A stretch of DNA of 62,934 nucleotides, filler included, from Octopus bimaculoides (lineage: Eukaryota): the NCBI RefSeq assembly GCF_001194135.2. It is 5 parts of 5 records of this genome, joined end to end, with 100 filler letters (N's around TTAATTAATTAA, not from the genome) between each part and the next. Parts side by side here need not be neighbours in the genome. Positions count along the whole stretch, not along the records: positions 1 to 13,890 come from NC_068981.1; positions 13,991 to 34,783 come from NC_069001.1; positions 34,884 to 43,034 come from NC_069008.1; 2 more parts are not named here. The stretch is one strand, 5' to 3'. Position 1 is the first letter of the stretch; every line of letters begins with the position of its first letter. Under the pieces are notes generated by a model that worked only from the letters and a program-made list of their open reading frames with translations, did not search any database and had not been told where the DNA came from. This document shows, in pieces, positions 8,925 through 60,330 of the stretch. A program made the position numbers and the translations under genes.

Positions 8925-9275
8925 TCATTGGTGGCTGATGATAGGTGCATTTCTGATCATGAGCAGAGTTAGTGGGGAGCATCATAGCCATGTGTTGAGA
9001 GGAAGTCTTTGGAGTTTGAATAATTCACCTTTGAAAACATGAGTATTTTGCTCAACATCCTTCAACAAACCTTATTCAGGGACCTTGCGGGATAGGCTAG
9101 TCGATCTGAAAACAATACTAACTGGACCCTACGTATGAGATCATGCGCTGTTAATTTTGATATGAGATCACCATGTCGCGCACATATGGTTGTGATGCAT
9201 GTGCCTGGTGTACCCTTATCAGATGGATAGTGATGATGGGTATACTGGACTTCGTATATTTTACTCCAAATTTGA
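8925..9275. mobile_element. Family B repeat, partial
   Basis: Aligns to about 49765-50110. Confidence 0.78.
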
Positions 9276-13609: not shown

Positions 13610-13689
13610 CATTCTGACGATGTTTATTAATTGGAAGGAGATGAATGCAAATTTACTTCAAAAATAAGAAACTGAAACGGCTGTAAATG
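13610..13689 (+). ncRNA. Type I hammerhead ribozyme-like motif, family G (Penelope/retrozyme-type)
   Basis: CATT-CTGACGA-[stem II tGTTTATTA...TAAGAAACt]-GAA-ACGGCTGT-A-AATG. Stem I CATT/AATG is perfect; stem III is a near-palindrome; predicted cleavage after GUA (13685). Confidence 0.62.
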
Positions 13690-13792
13690 TTATTTAATTA
13701 CAATTAAACTATGACCTCTTAATACCAATGATCAACTTCTAATTGTTAATTATTGCTCCATTTCTTTTATCTATCTATCTATCTGTATGTCA

Positions 13793-13870
<78 letters not shown>

Positions 13871-13890
13871 ATCTATATCTATATATATAT

Positions 13891-13990
13891 NNNNNNNNNN
13901 NNNNNNNNNNNNNNNNNNNNNNNNNNNNNNNNNNTTAATTAATTAANNNNNNNNNNNNNNNNNNNNNNNNNNNNNNNNNNNNNNNNNNNN
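13891..13990. other. Assembly linker 44N-TTAATTAATTAA-44N (12-mer also at 34828, 43079, 51393)
   Basis: The same palindromic 12-mer, with stop codons in all six frames, is centred in a 100-bp N block at four places; not biological sequence. Confidence 0.92.
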
Positions 13991-15595
13991 AAAGAGAATG
14001 TGTCAGGGTGGTTGTAGAAAATAGTGGATTCTATGGAGAATGGGTGGAATCCCCCCTTCCTCCATCCTAAGTGGAAAATGTGATTGAGTGTGGAAAGAGG
14101 TGAGGAAAAGGTTTTGGCAATAGGGAAGCGGGGGGGGGACGAGTGTGGGAGGTCGAGAGTAGGGGAGGGGGTAGTGGTGATGGTGGTAGTGATGGTGGGT
14201 TGGTGGTGCAGGGAAGAATGAGTGAAAGAGTGTGGGGTGTGCAAAGAGAGAGAGTGTGAGTGTATGTAAATTTCTGAAGGAGAGAGTGTACTTACGTAAG
14301 AGAGAGGAAGAAAAAGAAAGAAGAGCAGATCCCTCTTAATAGCATCATCTCCCCCCTCCCCTGCCCAAGAAAAGCAACTTACTGCTAGGGCCCATAGTAT
14401 TTTATTCATTGAATATTGGGGCTCCTAGATTCGTAGGTTCTTTCCAGGTGATTAACCAGGAATCCAGGATGGCCATACGTTAAGATGGGTCCTGGCTCTG
14501 TGTAGTGGTTGTGAAAAGGTGGAAAGGGCCAAAGGAAGGGAAGTTGAAGAGGAGGACACTAGGGAACTCTCTGCCCGGCTCTGTTCTAGTTTCCTTACCT
14601 GTTTATATCACTCTTTTCTTATTTTCTATCTTACTCTTCCCATCTCTCTCTGGTACTTCCCTTCTTGTCCACTGCCAAAGTAATTGCCACCACCACCACC
14701 ACCACAATCACACCACACCAGCACTGCCACTGCCAACACTGCCCCCACCATCTGTGGCTCTGGTTACAAGAGGTGTGACAGAACTGATGACTGTTCATTT
14801 CTCCACTCTCAGCATGGTGCCTTGTTTCCCCCCACTGAAACAGTGAGGAATGGTAGTAGGAGGTAAAATAACAACGGGGGGGGGGGTGCACCACAAAATA
14901 CTAAGGACTAAATAATCAAATAGACAAGTATGGTGTGTATGTGTGGCATACAGATCCAGCACAGTTTGGTTATACGTGTGTGTGTGTGTGTATGTGTGCT
15001 TGTATTTTGGATTTGTGTGTCTATGTGGACCAATACTTAGTGTTGTGTGTGTGTGTGAGAGGGAATAGCAATTACAATATGTGTATGCATAGGGTTATAC
15101 ATAGATGTGTGTATGTATATGTGAAGTTTATGTATGCGTTTCTCTGGATGTTTGTGTGTAATGTATGTTTATGTCTGTCTGTCTCTCTGTCTCTGTATAT
15201 ACACATACATATAGATATATAAACATATTACACACACACACTCATATATACATGAAGATAGTTGTGTTTGTATGTAGAAAGATTTTTAAATGTACCTCTC
15301 TAGATGTGTTTATGCATATGTGTGTGTGTATGTATGTATGTGTATGTGTGCAGGGGTGTGTATGTGTATGTGTGCAGGGGTGTGTATGTGTATGTAGGAC
15401 TGTACATAAGTTGCATAAATGCGTGTGTATGTGTACGTATCTTTTTGTATGTAGTTGGGTCTTTATGCATGTATATGTGTGAGTATATACAATGTGTATA
15501 TGTGTGTATTCATATGTGTATTTGTGTGTGTGTGTATGTAAGCCTGTACTTATATAGCTTGTGCATATATGTAAACGTGTGTTTTTGTATGTACG

Positions 15596-15638
<43 letters not shown>

Positions 15639-16257
15639 ATAAGGCTGATGTTAAGTTAGTAGGACAGCAGTCAGTAGAGTATTAGATATGAATGGTGTGT
15701 AACACACACAATGGTTGGATCACATAACAGTCCTCCTGTCTTGTTGGCTGGTTGGTTGGTTGGCAGGCTGGCTGGCTGGCTGGTCGGACGGTTGGTTGCC
15801 AATTGTTGGCCCACTCTTGATTTTTTTATTCATATTTTACACACGTAACATACATATGAACTGGTACACACACACACACGTGTATGTATGCATGCACACA
15901 CATACACATAAACACATGTGCATACATCTTAATTCTAGAAGATACTGACATACATATATGATTATGCAATTGTGCACACACACACACACGCATAGACATA
16001 TACACACATGCTTATACATATGCACACATACCTAAATACCAGTACGCACAAACATATGCACACACGATTACACACAGATACATGTGCACACATGCCAAAA
16101 TAGTAGAATATATAGATATACATTATCATGCAATTATACACACACACACACACACACACACCAGATTTTTTTTTTTAAATTTAGAAGTATGTGCATATGT
16201 GTGGTGGTGGTGGTGGTGGGCTTTATGGGAGCAGTTTATTGTGTATGTCTATGCATG

Positions 16258-16288
<31 letters not shown>

Positions 16289-16938
16289 GAAAGTATGTAT
16301 ATACTGATGTGTGTGTGTGTGCGTGTGCATAGATGTATATATTGATGTATGAAAAATAGGCTGACGTACTTCGCAGAGAACATCTTAATTCATTTTAATA
16401 AAGCATTTTGTTTAATGAGAGTGGTCCATAGCTAATTAAGCATAAATTTAAACCATCACAAAAGTCTCTGCAAACAGAATAAAATATACCAATACAAAGG
16501 TGTGTGTGTGTGCATATATACATGCATATATACATGCATATATACATGCATATATATATATATATAGTGTTCTGTGTTATAGTGTATGTGTGTGTACAAG
16601 TGTATCATATGTTGTGTTGTGTCATATATACTATATCTTGAACTGTAGTTGTGGTCGCTGTTGGTGCCATGTAAATGGCACCTGTGCCAGTGGTATGTAA
16701 AAGCACCCATTACACTCCTTGCGTGGTTGGCATCAGGAAGGGCATCCAGTTGTAGGAACCATGCCATAATGAAGGTAACCCCTATCACTTTGTGTGTGTG
16801 AGTCAGAGTTTGTGTGTGTGTGTGTGATTCACACCACTCACAAAAACATTTCAATACCCTGTCATTCATTGCTTTATGAGTAGGTGTCTGTTTTAGTTAG
16901 TGATATCAGTTTTTGTCAGTGTTGAAATATAACAACCC

Positions 16939-17017
<79 letters not shown>

Positions 17018-17558
17018 TAATTATTGTTAATCCTTTTCACAGATTAATAATATCTTGCAGACAAAACTGTTCCCATCCCTCTGTATTCGCTTACTTATTA
17101 CTGTATTCTTTTTATTCCTACTGCCCCTCACTGCTATCTTTTTGATGATGCCATGTGGAGAAGTACCCAGATCAATCTATTTGCATTACAGTTCAGTCAC
17201 AGAACAACAACGAGGTTACTCGTCTAACCTTGGAGGATTTTTTCAGGTGCATTACTATGTATATATATATTGGAGTTGGTGTATACGTTTGAGCATTTCA
17301 ATTGATCAAAATGTAAACTCTGTGATGTCCATTTTGCACTGAAGACCTCCCACCCAGGGTACTCAAAATGCAAACTTATTATTAAATATGTTTTGCAATT
17401 TAAATTGGGTGTAAATAAAGTGAAATGATGGTAGGCAATGTTGAATAATTAATAAATTAATTTATAGCCATTGAATCTCTTCATTTTCAAACTTATACAC
17501 ACACACACTTTTGTAACTTGCTGTTGATTAAATATCATAAGAAAGTAAGCATATATAC

Positions 17559-28843: not shown

Positions 28844-28880
28844 TCTTTCTGTTGAAGAGCGTAGCTCGAAACGTCAAAGA
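28844..28880 (+). ncRNA. Minimal hammerhead-like motif, family F (variant core CUGUUGA)
   Basis: TCTTT-CTGTTGA-A-GAGC-gta-GCTC-GAA-ACGT-C-AAAGA: perfect 5-bp stem I, 4-bp stem II, palindromic ACGT stem III, GUC triplet, extra A after A9. Confidence 0.62.
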
Positions 28881-28970
28881 CTTTCCGTATTCCCGAGCGT
28901 CATACTAATATATACTTTTGTTATTTACACCACCTGTCCTCGTCTGTTGTTATTTTTTGTATAATCTCCC
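28844..28970 (+). mobile_element. Short ribozyme-bearing repeat (family F) within (TA)n; Penelope-LTR- or retrozyme-like
   Basis: Aligns with 54030-54200 over the whole length (aaagactttc...ttcccgagcgt...tttacaccacctgtcctcgtctgttgtt...ctccc) and more loosely with 35095-35235; (TA)n on both sides. Confidence 0.65.
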
Positions 28971-29122
28971 ATATATATACACACATACATACATACACCA
29001 ACACAATATCAAATTTATTTTTACAAATTCATTTGATAATCTACTTAAGTGTACTGAGTGATTCTTCACTAAATGTTTGGCTCAATTTACATATGATGGG
29101 GCAAGGAGGTAAACCCTGCATT

Positions 29123-29165
<43 letters not shown>

Positions 29166-30608
29166 TGCGAATTTGCAACCAGATCCAAACTTAATCATCC
29201 TCGTTACCATCATTGTCATCATCCTTCATAGTAACAATCTGTCAGTGTATGCTGTCTGATTGTAGCAAAGTTGGTAAAAGTTTGCCGCCAGACAGACATT
29301 AGATGTCTGATGAATCAGGTTTGTTTGAATTAGTGCTGCTGCTGCTGTTGTTGCTGTTACTGATGACAATGTTGTTGTTGTTGTTCCTGTCATCGTCATG
29401 CTCCAGTGATTTAATTTTTAGGAATGTAAATATGTATAAAAAACAAGGCAGCAAAAAGAAAATCCCAACTGACTTTTATTCCAAATACACAATAATAGAT
29501 TCTGTTAACATGGTTCTGTCAAGAATGGCAAAGTATTTAATCTTTGAAGAGGGAAATAGACTGGTGATTCAATAAACCTCACTAGTGCCACTGGCACAAT
29601 AAAAGCACCCAATACACCCTGTAAAGTGGCTGGCATTAGGAAGGGCATCCAGCTATAGAAACCTTGCCAAAACAGGCCATCGGCGCTTGATGCAGTCCTT
29701 TGATCTGTTGGATGCTGCCAAATTGTCCAACCCATGCCAGCATGGAAAGCAGATGTTAAAGGATGGGAATGATGACACAGCATTGTTCAGTTTATGCACA
29801 TGTACACCTGTATGTGTGCTTGCATGTTTGTGTGTTCCCTTGATGGTTGTAAACGAGCATCATTGTTATACAGGTGCCGTTGTTCGTATTCAGTCTTCCA
29901 TGCAAAACATGTCTGGTCATAGGAAAAGGTGACCTTGCTTGGAAACAGTTGAAGAGTGGCAACAGGAAGAGCATCCAGCCGTATGAAATCTGTCTCAAGA
30001 AATTCTGTCTGACCCATACAAGCGTGGAAAAGTGGACATAAGATGATGAGATGCTTCAAATAATGAATCTCTCCTCATCGTCATCATCATTGTCATCATG
30101 GACTCAAAAGATGTTTGTTCTCGCAGCATGATGGCGGCAAAGATGAAATGACGAAATGAAAACAATGAAAATGGTTGCTTGGTGATTGTATGAGGAGTAC
30201 AGGTGTGAGAGAGATACAGGTATTGAAATATAAAAGCTGATACACCTATGATCAATACCTGGTTGGTATTGGTAACTACTAATACAAAAGTAATGTGTGT
30301 GTGTGTGTGTGTGTTCAAGTGTCTTACTGTGTTTTAGTGTGTGTGTGTGTGTGTGTGTGTATGAATAGGAAACCAGCATGAGAGTCTCTCGAACAGCTGT
30401 TTTTTGTTTTTGTTTTTTAAATGGATGTCTGTGTTTCTGTATATCACAGGGCTTGGTTGTATGGGTAAGAAGTTTGCATGAAAACTACAGGGTTTCAGGT
30501 TCAATCGCATTGTGTGGAGAAAACTTGGGGCAGCCCCAGTATGATCAATGCCTTGAAAGAGTGGAATTTGCATGACAGAAACTGTGCTGAAGCCCAGCAT
30601 GTGTGTGC

Positions 30609-30646
<38 letters not shown>

Positions 30647-32019
30647 TATATGTGTGTGTGTGTATACGTGTATCATCATCATCATTACATACACACATCC
30701 CTTACCTGTTTGCTTAAGCCTTCCATTCCCTGTTGTGCAGACACCATTAACAGCTTTCCTCCACATTCATTAATGGAACTATTTTGGTTTTTTCATTTCT
30801 CCCCCGTTGGGTCTCTGTTTTTTCAGCTCTACCTCAGTATCCCACCTTCAGTTATTTGTGGAGCTTTCTCTATCCCACCGCCATTGTGGGTTCCAGATCA
30901 GGGCCTGATATGTCCATACTGAACTCTCATCCCAACCCATATATTTCGTTGGGGGAAGACCAGCTTCTGACATGTTTTGTTGGTTTGAATTATCATCGAT
31001 AGACTTCTGTAGTTCTGCTTTGTTCTAGATGCGGTTGTTGGCGCTGTGCAAAGCCATTTTTACCCCTGGAAGGAAGTGGTCCATTTTAGTCTATCTTTTG
31101 ATCTGTGCAGCATGGGAGGCCCTAACAAGAGCTTGCATTTCTACTGGCATATTTCTACTCACACATGCTCCCTCCCCCTCATAAACATTCACTGACATGA
31201 AGATTGCCTATCCTGTGTATCCCATGTGATACCTGGCACATATTTTACCTGGCTTCCATGCACCACATATGATAGACATTCCCAGTTTTTGCTTTCAACC
31301 ACCAGAGTTACTTGTGACTTACGAAAGTAAAACTTCATATTTTATTCAAAACATATGAAAAGAAGGGCCAAATAAATTCTCGGGAAACCAACATGGGGAG
31401 TCAGGAGCAACTTATAAAAAGGGTTTGGACAGGCAAAGGGTTACTCTATCAACCCTGGACTGATAAAGTGCAGGGACCATCTCCAACGATGATTTGAACT
31501 TGGAATGTAGGGAGAGCCATCTAAATAACTCTGCAACACATTTTGTCCATTGCTCCACTTGTTTTATGCTCGCATTCTGATTAATGCATTATGGTGATGG
31601 TGGTGGTGGTGGTGGTGGTGGTTGATTATGATGACAATGATGATGATGATGTTCATGTTGACAATAATAATTATAATTGTTGCCGTTCGTTATCACTTGC
31701 TATCATTGTTTTTGGAGCAATCATCATCATAACCATCATCATCATTGATTACTTAATGTATTTGTGGCTTATTTATTGCTCATTCGAAGGGAGGGGGAGA
31801 AAATATTTTATCTCAACTCCACCCCTTCCCTCATGACTTTATATGTGAGTGTATGTGGATGCTATGTATTTGTGTATGTGCATATAGGTGTTTATATGTG
31901 TGTGTCATGTGTTTCTGTCTATTTATATGTGAGTGTGTGTGTGTGTGTGTCTTTCTATATCTCTATATGTGTCTGCGTGTGTTGTGTGTTTTTATCTTTA
32001 TGTTTGTGTTTGTATCTAT

Positions 32020-32056
<37 letters not shown>

Positions 32057-32263
32057 ATGTAATTAACATAACAGCTTGTTAATTGTCTAATATCATTAGT
32101 CAGGTGTGAATGGTCTGATGAATGTGTGTGTGTGTGTGTGACTGTTGAGAATTTCATATACGTTTGACTGTTTTTTTAAAGATATGTGTGTATTTGTGTT
32201 TGTTCGTGACTAATTAGATGTGTGTGTGTGTGTGTACATGTGTTTCTGGCTACTTGTTTAAAA

Positions 32264-32297
<34 letters not shown>

Positions 32298-32492
32298 AAC
32301 TGTTTACAGGTGTGTGTGTATTTCTTACTGATTCTTTAGAAATGGAAATTACTATGTCTCTGTTTACAGGTGTGTGTTTGTGTATGTGTGTGCCTTGCTC
32401 TGTGTGTGTGTGTGTTTATGTGACTATTTGGTTAGAAGTGTGCTGCTCAGGTGTTTATTCAAGTATGTATTGCACTTTTTATTTTGCTGTGC

Positions 32493-32533
<41 letters not shown>

Positions 32534-33128
32534 NNNNNNNNNNNNNNNNNNNNNNNNNNNNNNNNNNNNNNNNNNNNNNNNNNNNNNNNNNNNNNNNNNN
32601 NNNNNNNNNNNNNNNNNNNNNNNNNNNNNNNNNNNNNNNNNNNNNNNNNNNNNNNNNNNNNNNNNNNNNNNNNNNNNNNNNNNNNNNNNNNNNNNNNNNN
32701 NNNNNNNNNNNNNNNNNNNNNNNNNNNNNNNNNNNNNNNNNNNNNNNNNNNNNNNNNNNNNNNNNNNNNNNNNNNNNNNNNNNNNNNNNNNNNNNNNNNN
32801 NNNNNNNNNNNNNNNNNNNNNNNNNNNNNNNNNNNNNNNNNNNNNNNNNNNNNNNNNNNNNNNNNNNNNNNNNNNNNNNNNNNNNNNNNNNNNNNNNNNN
32901 NNNNNNNNNNNNNNNNNNNNNNNNNNNNNNNNNNNNNNNNNNNNNNNNNNNNNNNNNNNNNNNNNNNNNNNNNNNNNNNNNNNNNNNNNNNNNNNNNNNN
33001 NNNNNNNNNNNNNNNNNNNNNNNNNNNNNNNNNNNNNNNNNNNNNNNNNNNNNNNNNNNNNNNNNNNNNNNNNNNNNNNNNNNNNNNNNNNNNNNNNNNN
33101 NNNNNNNNNNNNNNNNNNNNNNNNNNNN

Positions 33129-33156
<28 letters not shown>

Positions 33157-33161
<5 letters not shown>

Positions 33162-33790
33162 GGTGTTAAGACTAAATTTGACAGTTTGCATAAAGGAAAA
33201 GAAAACAATATTCCATCAAAAAAGAAATGGTATTTTCAAAAAGCCAAAGAATCCCAACCAGATTATGGCTGGGAAATACCATTCTACTCCAAGGAGCTGT
33301 CCTCAGTTTCCACCATGGCTTCAAGACAGCTCTGGAACCTGGTGCATGCATTCCTCACTCTGTCCTGCCCTACAAAGATTTTCAAACACCTCCTTGATCC
33401 TGGCCAACCGCTTGGTCTCGGTGTTGCAGGCAGAGTGGGTGGTGTCTTTCCCAGCCATGCCCCACACATAGAAATCCATGGGATTACAATCGGGGAATTA
33501 AGAGAGGCCAGAAATTAAGGCTGGTGAAGTCATATAAGAAATCCTCTGATAACTGCTGCTCGCAGTTTCCAGAGTTATGGCAAGGAACCGAGTCCTGCTG
33601 CCACACATACGGCCTTCCAGCACCAGCTCTCTGTCCAGCGAGGGTTTGACCACAGTTTCCAGCAGCTTCTGAATTGTTCCAAGATGTAGGCCAGCATGAT
33701 GTCACCCTCTCTGGACGCACACCCAAACACCGTCTCAGCTTGAGGGTACTTGCTGTTCATGATGTCCATGTCATGTCTTGCAGTGTTTGC
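33157..33790 (-). mobile_element. Tc1/mariner superfamily (maT/DD37D-like) transposase 3' half with one terminus
   Basis: WQQDSVPCH..DFTSLNFWP (QQDSAP.H / WPP.SPD region), VRNACTRFQSCLEAMVE; terminal aaactgtcaaatttagtcttaacacccca-ta. Subfamily call from motifs only. Confidence 0.75.
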
Positions 33791-33962
33791 AGAACATTGA
33801 GCAGCAGTTAGGGACGGTTTAAGCAAGCTTCTTACCACACAACCACTCCTCTGCCGCCTATATCTTTATCTATATATATATATCTATCTATCTATCTATC
33901 TATATATATATATATATATATGTATTAAAAGTCAAGGTACAATATGCACCTACTTTTGAATA

Positions 33963-34013
<51 letters not shown>

Positions 34014-34624
34014 ATTATATACGCACACACATGCACACTCAGTCACACATTTGTACAGACATACACGTGTGTGTCCACCTCCTCCTCAAGTGGTGCTCAC
34101 TTTAATTACCACCACAGCAGCAGCAGCACCCACGTGAGTGTGCATGTGTCTACCTATCAACGCATCATTGTCATCGTCGTTGTCGTGCACCACCCACACC
34201 CTGCACCACCTGTGGATGCTGCTGTTGCTGCTGCTGCTGCTCTATTCGTTGGTCAGGTACTGCCCTCTTTTTATGCCATTTTGCACTCTCCAAATATTTA
34301 TCTTCCTCATCTCAAACTCTCTCTCTTTCTCTTATTCTCTCTCTGTGCCTTACTCTCTGTTCTTTCCTTCCTCCCCCCTCTTATTTCTCTCTCCCTCCCT
34401 CCCTCTCTCTCTATCTCTCTCCCCCTCTCTCTCTCTCTCTATGCCCTCCTCCCCTTCTCACTTCTGACCACTTACTCTCAACATCTTCTCTGCCTTTCAA
34501 AGTCTCACTTTTTGCAACTTCCTTCTTTCTCTCTCTCTCTCCCTCTCTGCCTTTCCCTCTTAGTCTCTACCTCTCTCCCTCTCCATCACTTCTCTCTCTA
34601 TCTTTTAGTATCACCCTTTCTTAT

Positions 34625-34681
<57 letters not shown>

Positions 34682-34979
34682 CATCTCATTCTTTCTTAAA
34701 TGTCTTCCTTCCTCTTTCAGTCTTTGTGCCAACATTGCTAAAATAATTCTGAGGATGGAACTCACTCTACTTGTTGTCTGTCTNNNNNNNNNNNNNNNNN
34801 NNNNNNNNNNNNNNNNNNNNNNNNNNNTTAATTAATTAANNNNNNNNNNNNNNNNNNNNNNNNNNNNNNNNNNNNNNNNNNNNAATACTATACAAATATG
34901 TCTTTAAAAAGACTTTTCTTCTAAATTTACCAAAATTTAATTTTTCAATAATTTTTCAAAACTCTATTATTCATATTTA

Positions 34980-35020
34980 CTGTTGAAAAGATCTCAAGGA
35001 TCGAAACCGGTCCTGTAATG
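34980..35020 (+). ncRNA. Degenerate hammerhead-like motif, family H
   Basis: CTGTTGA-AAA-GATC-tcaag-GATC-GAA-ACCGGT-C-ctgtaatg: stem II GATC/GATC, palindromic ACCGGT stem III, GUC triplet; the 5' strand of stem I is not convincingly present. Confidence 0.42.
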
Positions 35021-35094
35021 TTCTTTATAAAAGTATTTTAGCATTTTCTACTTTGTCTTTTTTCCATATATATATATTTATATATAGATATATA

Positions 35095-35235
35095 TTATTC
35101 TCTCTCTGTTTGTTTCCTCATATTCCTTTCCGTCGAAGAGCGTAGGCTCGAAACATGAAAGACCTTCTCACTTTCCCGAGCATCAAACTAATGCACCTGC
35201 TTTGTCTTTTGTTTTTTCTGTAAATTTCAACAATA
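35095..35235 (+). mobile_element. Older, diverged family F copy
   Basis: gaagagcgtaggctcgaaac...aaagacc.tc...ttcccgagcatcaaactaa is shared with the other two copies. Confidence 0.55.
35125..35162 (+). ncRNA. Degenerate family F hammerhead-like motif (probably inactive)
   Basis: CCTTT-CCGTCGA-A-GAGC-gtag-GCTC-GAA-ACAT-G-AAAGA; core and cleavage triplet mutated, stem II intact. Confidence 0.45.
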
Positions 35236-35288
35236 TGTGTGTGTGTGTATACAAACTTACATGCACACACACACACATATATATAGAG

Positions 35289-35323
<35 letters not shown>

Positions 35324-36430
35324 CAGGTATGGATGTGTCGTAAGAAACTTGCTTCCCAATTGCATAGTTCTGGGTTCAGTCCCACTCCATCGCATCTTGG
35401 GAAAGTGTCTTCTACTATAGCTTCGGGCCAAAAATTTGTGAGTAGATTGGTTAAGCTGAAAGAAGCCCATCGTGTGTGAACAATAGCTATTAAAAATAAA
35501 AACAGGAGGATAGTACAGTGATAGATACATTGTCCATGTTGAAAAACAATAGGAATGGTCACATCTGTAACAATTTGGGGGTCATAATTTTCCTTGATTA
35601 GTGATGAGTTGGTCACATTTGGACAGCAGCACAAACTTTTGCTCTCTTCATACTGTACACCCACACACACACAAAATTGGTTGTGATAAAAAAATACTTA
35701 CTTTCACTGAGGTAGAGAGCAGCCCTTTCACCTTAGGTGATTATATGAGGAGTTGATGTCAAAACTGTTCATTAAAGTCACAAATTTTCTCTGCTGTCCC
35801 TTCTCTCCTCTATGGTCAATAGTTGTCCCTATTACCCATAGTAGGGTCTACAAATGTCAGGGTTCTATATAAATGCCAGTACTGCTTTCAGTCCTAAGTT
35901 CTGTAATCAGTATTACTTACAGACTTAGATGCGTCCATATACGACCAAAACACGCAGACTGTGCACTGTTGTCTGTACCATCCATTTGCATTAAGCTGGT
36001 TTATGCATAACCAGTATTTCTCCACTGAAGTTTAAACACATAAAGCATTTCAGTACATCTTCTTTCATTGCTTAGAAGAAAGAAAAAGAAAGCCATTAAA
36101 TAGAGACATTGCGCTTCACTAAACATACAGAAAATACGGCTGTGTAGTTAATGAAATCGTTCTGATGTTAGTAGTGTTGTGGTCCTGATATTTGTGTCGG
36201 TAGAGATATAATAGTTGAACAGTTAATGTCAATATACAGAAGACTGTCGTTATATTATAGAAAAGCATTCAGATGTATCAATGTGGATGAGACAATGAGG
36301 ACATGTTCATTGTTCTGAATCGGTATACAATCGATTTCGACTATCGACAGTTGACATATCGAAAGATTTCAGGTTTTGAAACGCCTTGGCAAGAAAAGTT
36401 TTCCTCAGTTTTTCACTGCATATTTTTTTC

Positions 36431-36463
<33 letters not shown>

Positions 36464-36483
36464 CGCGCGTGTGCGTGCATGTA

Positions 36484-36577
36484 TTATCTTTGTAATAAAG
36501 AAACGCCGATAATTTCGATGACACATGTCTTTACATGCATCGTCGAAATTATCGGCGTTTCTTTATTACGAAGATAA
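36484..36577. repeat. 94-bp near-perfect palindrome (fold-back element)
   Basis: ttatctttgtaataaagaaacgccgataatttcgatga...tcgtcgaaattatcggcgtttctttattacgaagataa. Confidence 0.9.
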
Positions 36578-36613
36578 CACACACACACACACAAACAAAC
36601 ACATCCATCCATC

Positions 36614-36910
36614 CATCAACATCCTCTCAACGATGAGCCAGAGATGATTTTTAAATATGAGATTGTTTGAAATGAACCTGACCGCTCTCAAAAATTAAGT
36701 AAAAAGACAGGAAAAATAATCCAGAATCCTTGTCCGGTACCGGATCGATCCCAAATTCTAATCAGTTTGTGCCATTCACGAGGCCAAACATCCTTGAAAG
36801 TTTCATCTGAATCCATCCAACGGTTCTTGAGATATCTTGTCCACGGACAGACAAACAAACAAACAAACACAACTGAAAACAATACCTCTGCCTTCGCTAA
36901 GGCAGAGGTA
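36614..36910. mobile_element. Helentron-associated (HINE/DINE-1-like) non-autonomous element; 67-bp truncated copy of its left end at 37273-37339
   Basis: gaaagtttcatc..aatccatcc..cggttcttgagatatc, internal (CAAA)n, terminal 12-bp hairpin tacctctgcctt-cgct-aaggcagaggta (36883-36910). Class inferred from architecture. Confidence 0.55.
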
Positions 36911-36990
36911 AAAATTGAGATACTATATATACAATTTAAAATACAATCTAGACACTATACACACATACAGTTTGAAATACAGTATATACA

Positions 36991-37025
<35 letters not shown>

Positions 37026-37469
37026 ATGACTCCACACATGTCCACAAGCACACGTTTATTGAATGGCCGTTGACTACACTGTAATTCTTCTGCCCTTTGA
37101 CGGTCTTACTTTTTGTTCTGCAGGGTGTCAAACAATTGCCCTCACCACCAAGCACGCTCAGTGGAGTTGCCAGTTTAGTCGCCGACAACCCAACCATGTG
37201 ACAGGTTGTACTAGATTACATGGTACCAGTAGCGCTCAAGAGCCACCTGCCACATACATACATACATACATACATCAATGTCCTCTTAACAATGAGCCAG
37301 AGATGATTTTTAAAAATGAGAATGTTTGAAATGAACCTGTGTGTGTACATGTATGTACATGTGTGTACACACATACATACATACATATTACTTGTTGGAT
37401 TCATTTAAATCAAGTTATTTTATTAAAGACAACAAAGGCGACAAGCTGACAGAGTCCATAACACGGCAG

Positions 37470-37605
37470 GAAAAATATTTAGTGGCATTTCGTCTATCTT
37501 TACGCTATGAGTTCAAATTCTGCCAAGATCGTTTTTGCCTCACATTCTTTCGGGGTCGATAAAATAAGTACCAGTTGAGCCTTGTGCCAAAATTTGAAGC
37601 CAGTT
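37470..37605 (+). mobile_element. SINE family A, partial
   Basis: gagttcaaattctgcc...cattctttcggggtcgataaaataagtaccagttgag...ccttgtgccaaaatttgaa. Confidence 0.7.
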
Positions 37606-37775
37606 TTAAATGACACAAAGCAAGAGTCGAGCTCCGTACATCCGTGTATATACCATATATAAAAACATCTGTACATAGTCATTCAGTTTTATGATCCAAT
37701 GTAAGTTCCAGATTCAACATAGGGGTGGTTCCAGGAATGGTGTTTACATAAAATAAGAATACAAATGGGTTAAAG

Positions 37776-37855
37776 GTTCACTACAGCTGTTTCAGACACA
37801 TTAATTATAGATGATTCGATTATATCATGGAAAAAAAAAGTTTTCTTCAGACGAA
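37776..37855 (-). ncRNA. Type I hammerhead ribozyme-like motif, family G
   Basis: Minus strand TTCGT-CTGAAGA-[AAAC...GTCT]-GAA-ACAGCTGT-A-GTGAA. Stem II loop and both flanks are homologous to the 18029 copy (catgat.taatc, tctataa; downstream gtgaa..tt.aaccc). Confidence 0.65.
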
Positions 37856-38427: not shown

Positions 38428-38699
38428 CCATGAGACGCTTGTTCAAGCCTACAATATCATTGATCCATGCAAGGGTGTGTTCTCAACAAACAACCATAAT
38501 TGTGGTCAGTACGTACGTACGTACTTGCATGCCAGTGCATGAACTTTGTAGTCTACGCTTCATGCAAAACCCCGGTGAGCTGACGGATGAACAATCAGTA
38601 AATTAACAGAAATGAGAAAAATTACTTTCTATCGCAAAACTTTTTCATGCACCCCAGATTTTCCTGTGCACGCCTAGGGGTGCATATGTACCCCCATTG

Positions 38700-40725
38700 A
38701 GAATCCCTGAATCAGCCGGTAGCGGAGGGCCTGGAATTTGCCTGCATTAAATTGCATGTTGTTGTCCTCAGCCCATTTACATATGGCATCTAGGTCATTC
38801 TGTAGAAGATTAGCATCAGAAGGTTCTTTAACTGCTTGTACTATTTTTGTGTCGCTGGCATAGTTGGTAAGCGTAATTGCCTGTGTATCTGATGGCATGT
38901 CTGAAAGAGCCACCATGAACAGCAGCAGCCCCAATACAGTTACCTGAGGCATTTCACTTTCTATTACAGTTTCCTTGGAGAGGGCTCCGTTGGCTGCTAC
39001 ATCCTGCTACATCCTGGCTTCTGTCTTTTAAGAAGTCATGCAACCACTCTCCGATCTTCCCAGTTTTGCTGAGTCTCCGTAGTTTGTGACATATCATCCC
39101 ATGATCAACCATATTAAAGGTTTTTGCGAAGTTGAGATATATCACATCCACGTTTGAGTGATTCATTAATTGTTTCAACACCCCGTCATAGTGCTGCAAA
39201 AGCTGTGTAAGGCAGCTCTTCCTGAGCGAGAACCATGCTGGGTGTCAGGAAGCAAGTCATTATCTTCAAGGAATGCAATTAGTTTCTTCCTGACAATGCA
39301 CTCTATGACTTCGCTGACATGGGAAGTTAGAGAGACAGTTCTGTAATTTTCAACATCTGCTCTGCTACCTCCCTTATGGACAGGGCATATTATGCCTTCC
39401 TTTAAACTTTTTGGGAAGTCTCCCAGTTGAGTGGAAGCTCTGGAAGAGAATCTGAAATGGTCTTGCTAGAGTCTCTTTGCATTTCTTTAGGAGGATTTCT
39501 GGGAATCCATCAGAACCCGTGGTTGAGTTTGAGCTCATTTCGATAATGGCTGATATAACATCACTTTCCTATATTTTGATACTATCAATGATTGCCATTT
39601 CGTTGTATGGAGCTGTGGAGCCAAAGAACTCATCAGGCATCGCTAGTTGCAAAGTGTCCCAGTGGAGTGGTGAAAACGCTCTTGTATTGCACATTCAGTA
39701 TTTTACTGATCCTCTAGGGGGTCTGCAGTCGGTGAGCCAATTTCTTCGCATAGTTGCCCTATTTTGTACCGTACTGAAGCAGATTCTTTTTGCATATCTA
39801 GAGAAGGCTTCAGGGTTTACTCTTTACTCTTTTACTTGTTTCAGTCATTTGACTGTGGCCATGCTGGAGCACTGCCTTTAGTCGAGCAAATCGACCCCAG
39901 GACTTATTCTTTGTAAGCCTAGTACTTATTCTATCGGTCTCTTTTGCCGAACCGCTAAGTTACGGGGACGTAACCACACCAGCATCGGTTGTCAAGCGAT
40001 GTTGGGGGGGACAAACACAGACACACAAACACACATATATATATATATACATATATACAATGGGCTTCTTTCAGTTTCCCTCTACCAAATCCACTCACAA
40101 GGCTTTGGTCGGCCCGAGGCTATAGTTGAAGACACTTGCTCAAAGTGCCACGCAGTGGGACTGAACCCAGAACCATGTGGTTGGTAAGCAAGCTACTTAC
40201 CACACAGCCACTCCTGCGCCTTTGTCTTAATATTTTTGACAGCTCTGGCTTCCTTTTCTTGGGAGCGTTTGAGTTTATTTTCGATCTCGAGCAATATTTG
40301 TTTGAGATAGGATCGTTTGTTATCCTTTGGTGGCCCACTTAGACGATTTGAGATTTTTGCTCATTATCTCATTAGAATCCCCCTATATCTGGGTATGATA
40401 TCTTTCTGCTGGCTTGGCATTCTCTCTAAAGAAAACTTACTGCATATGTCATGCATGATTGTCATAAAGTGTTGTAGATTTATGTCGATATCTTGCGTAA
40501 AGAGACTGGCAGACCAGTTATATTCCATGATCCCTTTCTCGATACCCTTCCAATCAGCTTTGTGAAAGTTCAGGCTGGAGAGGAGCTGGGTGCTTTTAGT
40601 AGCCTGCACGTCTTTAGTCTTCTGTCGACCATACATTGTTAGTCCTATTAAGTTATGGTCCGAGAAAATCGTCAGTGTCACCTTAATATTATAGATGAGC
40701 GCGATGTTGTTTGTGAAGCAGAGGT
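38700..40725 (-). mobile_element. Decayed CR1/L2-group LINE (endonuclease end to RT), interrupted by SINE C
   Basis: TIFSDHNLI..LNFHKADW (40364 ORF); VDVIYLNFAKTFNMVDH..GKIGEWLHDFLKDRSQ; PQVTVLGLLLF...YASDTKI..LQNDLDAICKWAEDNNMQFNAGKFQALRY (YADD mutated to YASD). Confidence 0.85.
39817..40220 (-). mobile_element. tRNA-derived SINE, family C (full length, young), inserted in a LINE remnant
   Basis: Minus strand: ggcgcaggagtggctgtgtggtaag...gggttcagtcccac (B-box)...internal (TA)/(GT) microsatellite...ccagcatggccacagtcaaatgactgaaacaagtaaaagagtaaagagtaa; CpGs retained. Confidence 0.85.
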
Positions 40726-41049
40726 CCGGGACATTTTTCCCCGTGATCTTTTGATGAAAAATAACAGCGACAATTACACACCGGGAGAGACATACTACTA
40801 GGATATACGTCAGTTTAACAAGTATAGAAATTACGGCTGGCCCAGTACAACTGGAAAATAATCGTGCTATATTCATAATGAGAAATCTGTGTCGTCTGAC
40901 TACCATGAGAATGGAGACATCGAGCAGCTGATTCAATATTCTGCCATTACCGCCAAAAACCACCTTTATATATATGGTTCAATGAGAAAGTTCAAGAAAG
41001 TTTTGAACCAACTTAATTGGTTCAAAAGTACAATACTTCTCATGATTTC

Positions 41050-54807: not shown

Positions 54808-55694
54808 TGATCAATACGTATCCAGATTGTTGCTATAGTAACGAAGCTAAAGCACGCAGAGTGAAGCCGCTTGGCAAAGATTGACCTTGAATTCTGCTGT
54901 GCGTGCGCACTCAGTCTTAACGTTCTACCTCACTTCTGCTATTTACAGCACTGCTTGGAAGGAACGTGTGTTGCGTGTGATCGTCGCATTCACTATGGCA
55001 GAGTAAGTTGTCATGGCGATATCTGCTCAAAAGCCTACGCAAAGATGAAGAAGTGTATGGAGAGGAGTGTATGAAATGCACACAAGTGTACTAGTGGTTC
55101 AGGCGTTTCCAAGATGGCAGAAAAAATGTCTATAGTGATGAACGTTCTGGGAGACCCGCAACCAGCAGAACTGAGAAGGACATTGCAGATATGCATGCAG
55201 GTGTTAGGGGAAATCGTCGAATAATCATCCGTGAGTTATCAGAGGATGTGCAGATTAGTTATAGCTCAGTTCAGTCCATTGTCACTGAAGATTTGGGTAT
55301 GAGACGCGCGTCTGCCAAGTTTGTGCCAAAACTGCGTTCAGTTGACCAAAATGACACTCGGGTTTCAGTTGGACAAGATCTCATTGATTGTGTTGAGAAC
55401 GATGAAAACCTTTTGAAAACTTTGCGTAGGCCTCTGAGCAGGTAGCGCCAAGCGTTTGGCAAAGTTTGAAGCAGAATCTCTGCTCAACTTCCTCTGTCAT
55501 GTTCAATGCGACGATCACACGCTACACACCTTCCTTCCAAGCACTGGTGTAAACAGCGGAAGTGAGCTAGAACGTTAAAACTTAGTGCGCAAGCACAGAA
55601 AAATTCAAGGTCTGTCTGTGTCAAGCATCTTCACTCTGCGTGATTTAGCTTCGTTACTATGGCAACAGTCCGGATACTTACTGATCAGACCACG
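54808..55694 (+). mobile_element. Mariner-derived non-autonomous element with very long terminal inverted repeats
   Basis: Interior encodes the mariner transposase N-terminus (WFRRFQDGRKNVYSDERSGRP..RRIIIRELSEDVQIS..DLGMRRASAKFVPKL) with a stop; 54808-55044 is an inverted copy of 55420-55688. Confidence 0.88.
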
Positions 55695-56745: not shown

Positions 56746-56914
56746 TTATACAGTCTTAGGCCTATGCTTCTGTTAGAAATTATAATTATTATAAAATGTT
56801 AATTGCTTATTTGTTTATAATTTCAAGTGTTTTTCTTCTTTTTCTTTTTCTCGTCCCTGGTTACTGAACTACTTTTTACTGTTGGTGTTATTGATGTTGG
56901 CGTTTTTACTGAAG

Positions 56915-57437
56915 ACTGTCGGCTGCGACCATGAATTGAACTCTGACAAGCAGCTAGACCAGTGCGGTGTATGTGGCGGGAACAACAGCTGTATCACTTC
57001 GACGCCACTCTCCACAGACGGAGATCAAGTTACTGATACTGATGTAATAAACCGAAAACTGTCGGACACCAAAGACCGGAAGTTATCCGAGAAATCTTTC
57101 GACGGCAGCCATCTTAAGAGCGACGAGAACAACGATCAACGTCAACAATACCAGCAACAGCAGCACCACCACCATCACAGAGAGCAAGAGTCACAAGAGC
57201 AACAACGACAACAGCAACAACAACAGCATCAGCAACAGGAAAAGCAGCAGCAGCAGAAGCAGCAGCAACAACAGGAGCTGCAGCAGAAACTGCAACAGCA
57301 ACAGGATGAAGAAATTGTAGATGGCGATAGCAAACTGGTAAAGATGCAAATGAAGAGATGGAGGAAGAAAAAGAAAGACAAAGAATTGTATCGATGGGAA
57401 GTGAAATACGGAGAGTGTTCCGTCACCTGTTCTTTAG
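56915..57437 (+). CDS. Internal exon of an ADAMTS-like secreted matrix protein (ADAMTSL1/3 / MADD-4 type): end of Cys-rich domain, Gln-rich linker, start of TSP1 repeat
   Basis: Reads TVGCDHELNSDKQLDQCGVCGGNNSC, matching the ADAMTS Cys-rich motif GCD...D.CGVC.G (human ADAMTSL1 VGCDHQLGS..EDNCGVCNGDGSTC, from memory), and ends YRWEVKYGECSVTCSLG (TSP1 start). Acceptor tttttactgaag|ACT (phase 0) at 56914/56915; donor TTAG|gtaacc (phase 1) at 57437/57438. Open throughout. Confidence 0.88.
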
Positions 57438-57509
57438 GTAACCCTTTCTCATACCTACTTGTCTATATAGTGTTGTTGTTATTGTTGTCGTTGTTGTGTT
57501 ATTATTATT

Positions 57510-58044: not shown

Positions 58045-60330
58045 ATTAGACTGTTAGAAAGGAAAAAAAATATCCTAACATCGGGCTACAACAAGTAACC
58101 TTAGATGCCAAGAAGAACCCTCCTAAGTACACTAGCTGTCCCTAATAACTCTGTTTTCTGCAGCTGTACTAAACTGGGTTTTATGCCTATTTCCTCTATC
58201 CATCTGTTCAAATCTTTAGGGATAGTTCCCAATGCACCTATAACTACTGGGATACATTTTACCCGCACATTCCATAGCGTCTGTAGTTCAATGGTTGGGA
58301 CTGTAAAGTCTATAATCTGGCACTTTCTATTCTTTATATCTACCACTACTAAATTAGACCTTCTAGCTTCTATTATTCTGTCAGTTTGAATATTAAAGTC
58401 CCACAACAGCTCGAATTTCTTACTTTCTAATACTTTAATAGGTTCATGTTCATACCATTTATTAGTATGTTCAAATCCCAGCTTTCTACATAACTCCCAA
58501 TGGATTACTCTCCCTTGGTTGTCATGTCTTTTCTTGTATTCTTTCTGTGCCAGCATGCTACTTTCACTTACTAATTTCTGTCTCCCTTTTCAGCCTTCCT
58601 TTCTGCAATCATAGCCATGTCTCACTACTACTATTTGCTGCAACTATTTTGGGGAATCTACCGTGGAACGCCTTCTCCTGCCAGTCAGATAATTTCTGTT
58701 CTTTTTTCTGGTTTTAAACTTCGTTTGGGTTTTTGGTTTCCCTATGTCTTGCTGTGACTTTGGCAGCTTTTAATAAACTTTCTTCAGTATTACCTACATA
58801 GGCGTCTATATCTACTCTAGCTAATTCCACGCAGTCTTCTACTGATATTAACCCTCTTCCGCCTTCCTTTCTTGGTAAATATAATCTCGCTAATCCTGCC
58901 CTTGGGTGGTGTCCTCTATTCATATTGAATTTCTTCCTAGTTCTTTTGTCTAGCTTTGCTAATTCAGTTTTTGTCCAATCTACAAAAGCTGCTGAGTATC
59001 TAAGTAATGATACTGCCCAAGTGTTTACAGCCTTCACGAAACTCAGACCATTTAGCTTTATCTTCATTAGCTTCCTCACCCTTCTGATGTACTCCTCGGC
59101 ATCTGATAGTTTCAAGCAACTTTCTGTAGCATCATTTGTTGCACCTTTCTGCTGGTAGGGTGGTGTGTGCTGCATTTTTGTGTGGGGGTGGGTGGGGGAA
59201 ATATTGTATTGTATCAGTATGTTTTGTTATGGGGTTTGGTTTGAGTCTTCTGTTGTATTAGTTTTTGCATTGCGTGTTGTTTGTGCAACGTAGGTTGTGT
59301 TCTTCTGTCGGGTACCGGCCTTCTATAGCACTTGTGGGCTTTGTTCATTTTGTTGGGTGTTTACGATATGAGTTTATTCGTGTATGTCTTGGGAGGAGTG
59401 TTGCATAGTGGTGTGTGTAAATCATAAATCAACCCTTTCATATTATTTATGGCTATCTGTCCACCGTTCTTTCTATTTTGTTTGTTTTTGTTATGGGTTC
59501 GTTTTTACAGTGTTTTCTTTTTTAACTGAACACCGCCCATGGACATATGTTGATGTTTCTTTCGTAGTTATAATTATTATTGATGTATCAGCGAGAGACC
59601 AAGAAGAAACAGCAGTGTGCATATATATATAGAGAGAGAGGTCTTGTATAAATATGGATGTATATGCAATTAAAATTTAAAATTTAAAATTTTACTCACA
59701 GGTTTGCAGTTTTCGTATAGAAATATTGCAGTGTTTACATTTTTACGCACATGTTACTGTCTAAGGGGAAGCAATGTTTTTGTATATATATATTCCATAT
59801 ATGAAAAATCTTTCAGTTTCCTGAAATGGTTTACATTAAGACAATTTTCTTTCTGTGTTTTTGCGGATTTATAATTCCTGCTTCGTGTTGGTTTCAGATT
59901 TGATCTATCTTTCTGGCATCTCGCTGTCACATGCCCATGCTGTTTGGTATTTGCTGCAGTATCTCTTTGTTTTCTTCGCTGGTCCACTTCCTCCTCCTTA
60001 CTCTATTATCTGCTGATGCTGTATTAGGATAACAGCTGTGGTCAGTCTACGTCTTTACTGAACCATTGCCGAGCGATATGCCTTCCATTAAATATCCAGC
60101 TTCATTTCCGCAGTTACAACCAAAGTTTCTTCGGAAACTCCTGTCTCTCATAAACTGAGCCTTCTACCAGTCGGGATGTGAGATTGCTGGATGTTCCGCT
60201 TTAGAAATTTATAGAGGATTAGTGATGGGGAAGTGCGATGACGTTCTCGGGGAGATTCTGGGCTCCGACGAGAACGAACTGGCTAGTCTGTTCCGCCGAA
60301 CTTTCCGGTTGGAAACTATCATGTGACCGA
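58045..60330 (-). mobile_element. R4/Dong-like (RLE) non-LTR element, internally deleted; 5' boundary uncertain
   Basis: N-terminal RVRRRKWTSEENKEIL (60004-59951); post-RT EYIRRVRKLMKIKLNG..AVNTWAVSLLRYS..RLYLPRKEGGRGL; C-terminal YKKRHDNQGRVIHWELC..LLWDFNIQTDR..IIDFTVP..PVVIGALG; followed by (AAC/AAT)n. Confidence 0.82.

Follow-up and report, generated by a model that had tools for sequence, protein, structure and literature searches.

Hammerhead ribozyme motifs with a long predicted stem II in Octopus bimaculoides, likely remnants of Penelope-like elements

Results

The window, i.e. the whole stretch of 62,934 nt of Octopus bimaculoides DNA analyzed here, contains three real hammerhead ribozyme motifs (m1, m2 and m3) that go beyond chance. 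Judged by their sequences, m2 and m3 are copies of one dispersed repeat. In the reading that we favor and hold to be probable, all three are hammerhead sequences, with m2 and m3 as decayed copies, and all three are likely the 5′-truncated 3′ ends of Penelope-like elements (PLEs), probably of the Hydra clade.

Motif architecture

Each motif is of type I, 79–80 nt long, and comprises the core elements CUGANGA, GAAA and UH in this order (3 of 3). Motif m1 (13610–13689, plus strand) is built up from CUGACGA (13614–13620), region II (13621–13673), GAAA (13674–13677) and a stem III 8-mer, ACGGCUGU, with A13685 as H17; its stem I has four Watson-Crick pairs. In m2 (18029–18107, plus strand) the corresponding parts are CUGAAGA (18033–18039), region II (18040–18091), GAAA (18092–18095), stem III ACAGCUGU and U18103 as H17. 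Motif m3, of the m2 family, lies on the minus strand (37776–37855) with CUGAAGA from 37850, GAAA from 37793 and A37782 as H17. The two boxes reported in an earlier note on this DNA, CUGA(C/A)GA and GAAAC(A/G)GCUGU, are present at all three sites. They start at +13614, +18033 and −37850 and at +13674, +18092 and −37793, respectively, the second box 53, 52 and 50 nt past the first in m1, m2 and m3; these are the only three matches of the second box in the window. The cut positions given in the note agree with H17 of m1 and m2, whereas its position for m3, 37781, lies one base past H17, on the far side of the cut.

The closing stem I has 4, 4 and 5 pairs in m1, m2 and m3, G·U included, as had been noted. 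Its sequence was said to differ between copies while pairing is kept. Between m1 and the others both strands indeed differ, with no homology shown; m2 and m3, however, share the 3′ strand GUGA and differ by wobble only. The 5′ flanks are 63–73% pyrimidine over 30 nt.

Position 11.1 is U in all three motifs, as stated before, but its description as aberrant did not hold up. It is no oddity, because C occupies this position in many m2 paralogs and U does so in 18 of 26 Hydra-clade rows of File S2 of PMC8557442 (counted here). CpG decay alone is a candidate cause and would fit the frequent C in the paralogs; the mirror change at 18092, however, stayed below 25%, and U is frequent in the Hydra-clade motifs as well.

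Comparison with chance

A generic type I hammerhead descriptor, with thresholds chosen after the motifs had been seen, returned exactly three sites in 63 kb, namely m1, m2 and m3. Two sets of 100 shuffles each gave means of 0.06 and 0.15 and maxima of 1 and 2. The hammerhead assignment of the earlier note is supported. Allowing one mismatch per box still resulted in three sites, versus none in 60 shuffles. As an independent control, we took two related box patterns to viral and metagenome contigs: each of the 28 sites matched there had only 0–1 stem I pairs. Pattern scans yielded 25, 0 and 13 stretches in viral contigs and 0 and 3 in metagenomes, with no relative among them. An Rfam search at E-values up to 1 gave 144 matches, mostly on microsatellites and none to a hammerhead. 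The window-wide repeat search was likewise dominated by microsatellites.

A dispersed repeat family

A superposition of m2 and m3 resulted in 75% identity over 84 nt (E 2e-8). No homology of m1 to either was shown (nhmmer E 6.1), and m1 probably represents a separate family; of the single family proposed earlier, the m2/m3 part is retained. Aligning contigs to m2 alone (neither m1 nor m3 was used), we obtained 152, 125 and 243 paralogous contigs in runs X8, X17 and X16 of organisms A, B and C, respectively, which bears out the proposed link to a dispersed repeat of retroelement type. At nine positions m2 departs from 25% or more of the paralog depth in one or several of the runs. No difference reaches 25% in 18033–18039 or 18092–18107, with low depth over the first box.

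The extent of m2 common to the paralogous contigs is a solo repeat fragment (18019–18135, plus strand). Position 18019 is the most upstream start of the paralog matches, and the fragment stops 28 nt past stem I, where a CA run takes over at 18136. In m3 the family continues further in the 3′ direction (37720–37775, minus strand); 22 of 30 letters of this continuation, compared by eye, agree with the loose-end consensus that run X16 gives behind 18131. Among the contigs aligned to m2, the only joint listed is one short step back in X16. Neither organism B nor organism C yields a contig over the 5′ flank of m2 (17985–18014), so a conserved orthologous locus was not seen. Contigs of run X12, which are RNA by guess only, span 17927–18197 without differences.

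Predicted fold and decay

Region II was predicted to form a long hairpin in m1, with a G-C closing pair under a U·U, and in m2, in neither case stronger than in shuffles (fractions 0.09 and 0.29). In m3 (0.68) the 5′ arm of stem II is worn to a U run and the closing helix is absent from the predicted fold. The 50–53 nt stem II described previously is thus predicted for m1 and m2 and not formed in m3. Relative to the best fold, constraining the prediction to a hammerhead costs 4.9, 5.7 and 11.6 kcal/mol in m1, m2 and m3, and no single copy folds better than its shuffles (z-scores 0.36, 0.71 and 0.31). The note had taken the three for working self-cleaving modules; with folds no better than shuffles they look decayed. 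By now m2 and m3 are likely inactive, and m1 may still be able to fold; the window probably contains fossil copies.

Eight majority-letter differences from m2 are common to all three runs. With these letters in m2, the predicted energy of region II drops to −15.0 kcal/mol (shuffle fraction 0.006), compared with −5.9 kcal/mol for the unchanged copy, and the prediction is a long stem II hairpin closed by G10.1-C11.1 and reaching down to the core, in a fold that retains the 5′ arm of m2 itself. This gain was equalled by 0 of 2000 random eight-letter changes and by 0.2% of same-type changes. The model therefore predicts for the family a long stem II, closed by G10.1-C11.1 and about twice the usual length. 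The paralog letters give one wobble-type change, at 18089; since the comparison used majority letters only, two-sided covariation was not demonstrated.

Surroundings of the motifs

We checked the window for the traits of Hydra-clade PLEs: a single ORF with reverse transcriptase (RT), a C-terminal GIY-YIG, DKT and CxCX5C, and insertion at (TA)n. No PLE RT or GIY-YIG was found in the window by Pfam (244 of 319 frames of at least 45 aa) or by motif scans, and tblastn of an RT-bearing PLE protein gave a best E-value of 2.7 for the RT part. The earlier remark that no Penelope ORF adjoins the motifs is confirmed, and truncated copies would be expected to lack one. An ORF linked to a copy was not seen elsewhere either. 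An RT fragment (RVT_1, E 1e-4) that lies 0.8 kb upstream from m3 was rejected as a PLE RT: it looks LINE-type by its motif and gave no tblastn match to the PLE RT. An ADAMTS-like exon was noted as a candidate for the host-gene context. We also considered m1 and m2, 4.4 kb apart on the same strand, as the two pLTRs of one PLE and rejected this pairing (no homology, no ORF between them).

A (TATC)n and then (TA)n run (13768–13890, plus strand) starts 79 nt past m1 and is a possible, weak candidate for a 3′ insertion target; m2 adjoins CA, not TA. Microsatellites are dense here: a position picked at random has an even chance of being no more than 120 nt away from one. RNA-seq coverage of m2 was sparse, with a raw depth of 0–3 in X22 and 0 in X24 (about 6% of each cDNA run), and the read ends looked for at the cut site do not pile up at this depth.

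Discussion

Proposed origin of the copies

The stem III 8-mer is self-complementary and has no loop nucleotide in any of the three motifs. For monomers the 15.1-16.1 pair probability is below 0.02 throughout, and the self-duplex of the 8-mer was calculated at −9.7 to −11.1 kcal/mol. Since a loopless stem III cannot hold in a monomer, we propose pairing in a tandem dimer. In the parent element the ribozyme would be located some 30–150 nt from the 3′ end. In a tandem precursor RNA, the 8-mers of two ribozyme copies would pair with each other to give an 8-bp helix III, and the dimer would cut after H17, perhaps assisted by the element's own protein as in the Anolis PLE, whose ribozyme is reportedly helped in this way. 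Reverse transcription would begin a short way downstream and often halt early, which would leave solo fragments without an ORF that later decay.

Alternative explanations

The family might never have had an ORF of its own and be a monomeric retrozyme or SINE-like non-autonomous unit that borrowed the PLE ribozyme and enzymes, possibly via circular RNA. This possible, if rather unlikely, alternative would account for the lack of an adjoining ORF in all three copies and for paralog matches that start no further upstream than 18019. It has models, too: PLE pLTR-related monomeric derivatives of retrozymes (10.64898/2026.07.22.740005) and an axolotl retrozyme hammerhead, HHR_Amex2, that cleaves with a U·U at the helix II base (PMC7229834). 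The copies in the window are solo, however, without a tandem unit, which tells against the circRNA or tandem retrozyme family of the earlier note, and the short step back in X16 is the sole joint listed. Retrozymes are described as highly expressed, in contrast to the RNA-seq depth over m2; this argument is weak, because libraries of this kind readily lose small circles. A bolder version is unlikely: m1 and m2/m3 would stand for at least two unrelated families of short retroelements without ORFs in octopus-like genomes, with an oversized hammerhead (stem II of about 50 nt, loopless stem III) whose long arm docks the protein of a partner PLE, an unrecognized SINE-like class missed by standard descriptors.

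That the motifs are active, retained cis-regulators cutting a host transcript is highly unlikely. In its favor are core boxes that stayed intact in every motif while region II drifted, the full hairpin predicted for m1, and X12 contigs that match the m2 locus; but the copies were picked by their intact cores, the costs of the constrained fold and the z-scores speak against activity, read ends do not pile up at m2, and organisms B and C lack a contig over its 5′ flank. We regard as extremely improbable that the resemblance is incidental, either by chance or through an unrelated repeat with both boxes. The Rfam result, single copies that fold no better than shuffles and the lack of a shown paralog of m1 (to which no run was aligned) would agree with it, whereas the descriptor counts, the stem I pairs nearly absent from all control matches and majority letters whose specific effect is to complete stem II as far as the core argue against it. 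Decayed PLE ends remain our preferred reading.

Implications

The new point is an animal hammerhead in which a long stem II goes together with a stem III that has no loop. Such motifs may be undercounted, because they fall outside the published descriptor and have no Rfam hammerhead match. A family with many copies, common to three organisms, is material for covariation analysis and allows a direct test of the role of the PLE ribozyme and of its need for a dimer or the element's protein. We found no report of long-stem-II cephalopod hammerheads in the literature searched, which excluded subscription papers, Repbase and Dfam.

Comparison with known systems

Hammerheads at PLE ends are already known, Octopus included. 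Non-LTR retrozymes (PMC7229834 and 10.64898/2026.07.22.740005) resemble the present motifs in being of type I with a weak palindromic helix III, without an ORF and PLE-related; their defining traits are tandemly repeated units of about 300 nt and circRNA in abundance, and we saw neither here. Most PLE hammerheads are single motifs of truncated PLEs (Cervera and De la Pena 2014, PMC4209133). The minimal and palindromic-helix-III ones described there share a stem I of 4–5 bp, a pyrimidine-rich 5′ flank, a palindromic helix III (with an AGCU center in the D. willistoni row), mostly solo dispersed copies and a predicted dimer activity; G·U and A-U closings also occur in that alignment. Their region II does not exceed about 23 nt in the rows compared, so the greater length of stem II noted earlier is upheld for these rows. 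The descriptor of PMC4209133 would miss m1, m2 and m3, because it limits stem II to no more than 7 bp and a 10-nt loop. A long stem II has a precedent in Selaginella PLE-X1 (PMC8557442 File S2), a PLE-borne type I hammerhead with a region II of roughly 48–54 nt, flagged there as departing from the canonical structure. This element, in contrast, is from a plant, endonuclease-less and rDNA-targeted, and its stem III differs.

The earlier comparison with Penelope and retrozyme hammerheads holds for PLEs and can be narrowed to the Hydra clade, tabulated by Craig et al. 2021 (PMC8557442 Files S1–S2). Region II there is at most about 26 nt, versus 50–53 nt here, and the motif 40–60 nt in 25 of 25 families, versus 79–80 nt, size being a descriptive trait and not a clade definition. 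Hydra-clade stem III has 1–3 loop nucleotides and an ORF is linked, unlike here. The supplement contains no match to the stem III box of m1, m2 and m3, and Hydra-1_Obim of O. bimaculoides itself has a different hammerhead sequence with a region II of about 22 nt. In O. vulgaris a PLE expansion is reported at about 0.2 divergence (PMC13282606), similar to the m2–m3 distance. The hosts are aquatic invertebrates in both cases. All three motifs share the type I form and an AC...GU stem III of 3–4 pairs with the clade, where AC...GU occurs in 26 of 26 rows of File S2 (counted here; five start acag, four of them acag-NN-ctgt). U at 11.1 is common to both, as is a U in each strand at the base of stem II, found in m1 and in 14 of 26 rows (counted here). 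In 23 of 25 Hydra-clade families no more than 150 nt separate the end of the ribozyme from the 3′ end, and in 10 no more than 45 nt; the m2 fragment ends 28 nt past stem I. Judged by sequence, the anatomy of the motifs best fits that of Hydra-clade PLE hammerheads.

Detection of the hammerhead motifs

Three type I hammerhead motifs lie in the window, which is AT-rich animal DNA dense in microsatellites and gaps; its SINE and zinc-finger features suggest an octopus as the host. They are m1 (13610–13689, +), m2 (18029–18107, +) and m3 (37776–37855, −), each found where an earlier note had placed it. The box GAAAC(A/G)GCTGT occurs three times in the window, and CTGANGA lies 50–53 nt before each copy. 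Only m1, m2 and m3 were returned by a generic descriptor of the type I hammerhead, which asks for at least 4 pairs in stem I and, in stem III, for 3 pairs or for 2 with a short loop; block shuffles gave means of 0.06 and 0.15. With one mismatch permitted per box, the count was still three, versus none in 60 shuffles. Since these thresholds were set post hoc, with the motifs already known, an external control is the better one: stem I has 4, 4 and 5 pairs in m1, m2 and m3, respectively, whereas viral and metagenome contigs searched with two related box patterns yielded 28 matches, each with 0–1 pairs. An Rfam search gave no hammerhead among 144 matches.

In a separate set of 13 viral-contig matches (L029–L041), several appear to be true type I hammerheads in which stem II is short and stem III long; they are unrelated to the m2/m3 family. 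A repeat at 8935 (+), 49774 (+) and 57883 (−) carries CTGA(T/C)GA in each copy and CTGAAGA about 175 nt further on in two of the three; no copy passes the hammerhead descriptor.

The m2/m3 family

The motifs m2 and m3 are 75% identical over 84 nt (E 2e-8). A profile built from both matched m1 only at E 6.1 and found no further copies in the window. We therefore take m1 to be a look-alike from a separate family, which narrows the single family of three proposed earlier to m2 and m3. At 80% likeness, 152, 125, 243 and 1 contigs aligned to m2 in sequencing runs X8, X17, X16 and X20 of organisms A, B, C and D, respectively, the longest aligned pieces covering 18019–18131; summed depth on m2 is not a copy number. 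Organisms A, B and C have eight majority differences from m2 in common, and a ninth, at 18089, reaches 15–30%. None of the differences at 25% or above falls inside the core boxes or the 3' strand of stem I, in a comparison that covers the first box thinly and favors records similar to m2. At position 11.1 (18091), C accounts for 52% (X8), 29% (X17) and 44% (X16) of the depth. The m2/m3 repeat is multi-copy, and its copies in the window are eroded.

Predicted fold

Whole-motif folding was no better than that of shuffles (z = 0.36, 0.71 and 0.31 for m1, m2 and m3). For region II, the stretch between the CUGANGA and GAAA boxes that holds stem II, the shuffle fractions were 0.09, 0.29 and 0.68. 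The best fold of region II in m1 is a hairpin reaching down to a G-C pair under U.U; in m3 the closing helix is absent from the predicted fold. The stem II of 50–53 nt claimed earlier is predicted for m1 and m2, where it is no stronger than in shuffles, and not for m3. Introducing the eight majority letters into m2 changed region II from −5.9 to −15.0 kcal/mol, with stem II predicted to be closed by G10.1-C11.1 and a shuffle fraction of 0.006. An equally good fold arose in 0 of 2000 random eight-letter changes and in 0.2% of same-type changes. Because the majority letters strengthen stem II of m2, we predict that a long stem II characterizes the family and has worn away in the window copies. 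The pair probability of stem III in the monomer is predicted to be below 0.02, and its 8-mer was computed to self-pair at −9.7 to −11.1 kcal/mol in a duplex of 8 bp; helix III is predicted to form as a dimer.

Flanks, transcripts and neighboring elements

In agreement with the reported absence of a Penelope ORF, we found no trace of a Penelope-like element (PLE) protein in the window by Pfam (244 of 319 filtered frames), by tblastn with the RT-bearing protein P0041 or by a scan for PLE motifs. Residues ~700–1125 of P0041 are a PLE-type reverse transcriptase (PF00078, PF26215) embedded in a salamander zinc-finger gene model. The shared part of m2 stops at 18135, 28 nt past stem I, and is followed by a CA run. 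The motif m3 carries the family further 3', with 22 of 30 letters agreeing, by eye, with the X16 loose-end consensus. A TATC/TA run lies 79 nt from m1; half of random positions are within 120 nt of a microsatellite.

In RNA-seq runs X22 and X24 (~6% of each run) the depth on m2 was 0–3, and the pile-up of read ends suggested as a sign of cleavage did not appear there. The high-copy repeat beside m2 reached ~1000 per strand in the same data. This shows that an abundant m2 transcript is absent from these libraries; small circles may still exist. This neighboring repeat (18155–18341), directly after m2 and separate from it, is of very high copy number and has good RNA-seq coverage on both strands; its loose ends start TTAACCCTTT, which resembles a piggyBac-type MITE end.

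Elsewhere, an exon-like frame (56795–57508, +) with a long Gln-rich insert matches the ADAMTS cysteine-rich domain PF19236 just under the cut-off (E 7e-4); a search for its other exons found none. A C2H2 zinc-finger array interrupted by a gap lies at 42658–43032 (−). Of 38 zinc-finger protein hits, 3 belonged to Octopus, with no more than 54–60% identity. Broken LINE-type frames occur at 38677–41916 (−; RVT_1 at 38677–39006) and at 58101–59226 (−). The latter, which by its motifs we take to be Dong/R4-like, had no match at E 1e-45. Inverted arms of 203 nt (86%) at 54808–55687 flank a mariner-like frame (55095–55445). The stretches 72–172 and 1121–1221, 1049 nt apart, are seemingly identical, possibly through local duplication or an assembly artefact.

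Origin and comparison with known hammerheads

The three motifs are built like the PLE hammerhead. According to PMC4209133, PLE hammerheads have a short stem I and a palindromic helix III, occur mostly as solo copies, and show low activity that depends on a dimer. We consider it probable that the three motifs derive from truncated 3' ends of PLEs; cleavage would then take place in a tandem precursor. The main rival, which appears unlikely, is a non-autonomous element in place of a truncated PLE. ORF-less retrozymes are defined by tandem units (PMC7229834; 10.64898/2026.07.22.740005; review PMC6765202), unlike m1–m3, which are not in tandem units within the window.

Whether the source is specifically the Hydra clade is about an even call. 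This clade, defined in PMC8557442 and its preprint, targets (TA)n and has a member in O. bimaculoides. In our own count of its hammerhead table, 18 of 26 rows carry U at 11.1, and 14 of 26 have a U on each side of the base of stem II. All 26 rows have an AC...GU stem III, the motif length is 40–60 nt, and in 23 of 25 families the ribozyme ends at most 150 nt from the 3' end.

In PMC11167929, the Anolis PLE ribozyme is reported to cleave only with protein and to leave no RNA-seq ends, and insertions to terminate at two RT start sites. In coleoids, Penelope is among the enriched repeats (PMC8967140); the excerpt of PMC13282606 places PLE expansion at distance 0.2, with ribozymes unmentioned there.

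We found no description of the long-stem-II form in cephalopods in the open-access papers searched. Unlike the PMC4209133 descriptor, which limits region II to ~26 nt, the boxes of m1–m3 stand 50–53 nt apart. Two Selaginella rows of PMC8557442 likewise have a region II of ~50 nt. We regard the long-stem-II motif as a variant of the already known PLE hammerhead type.
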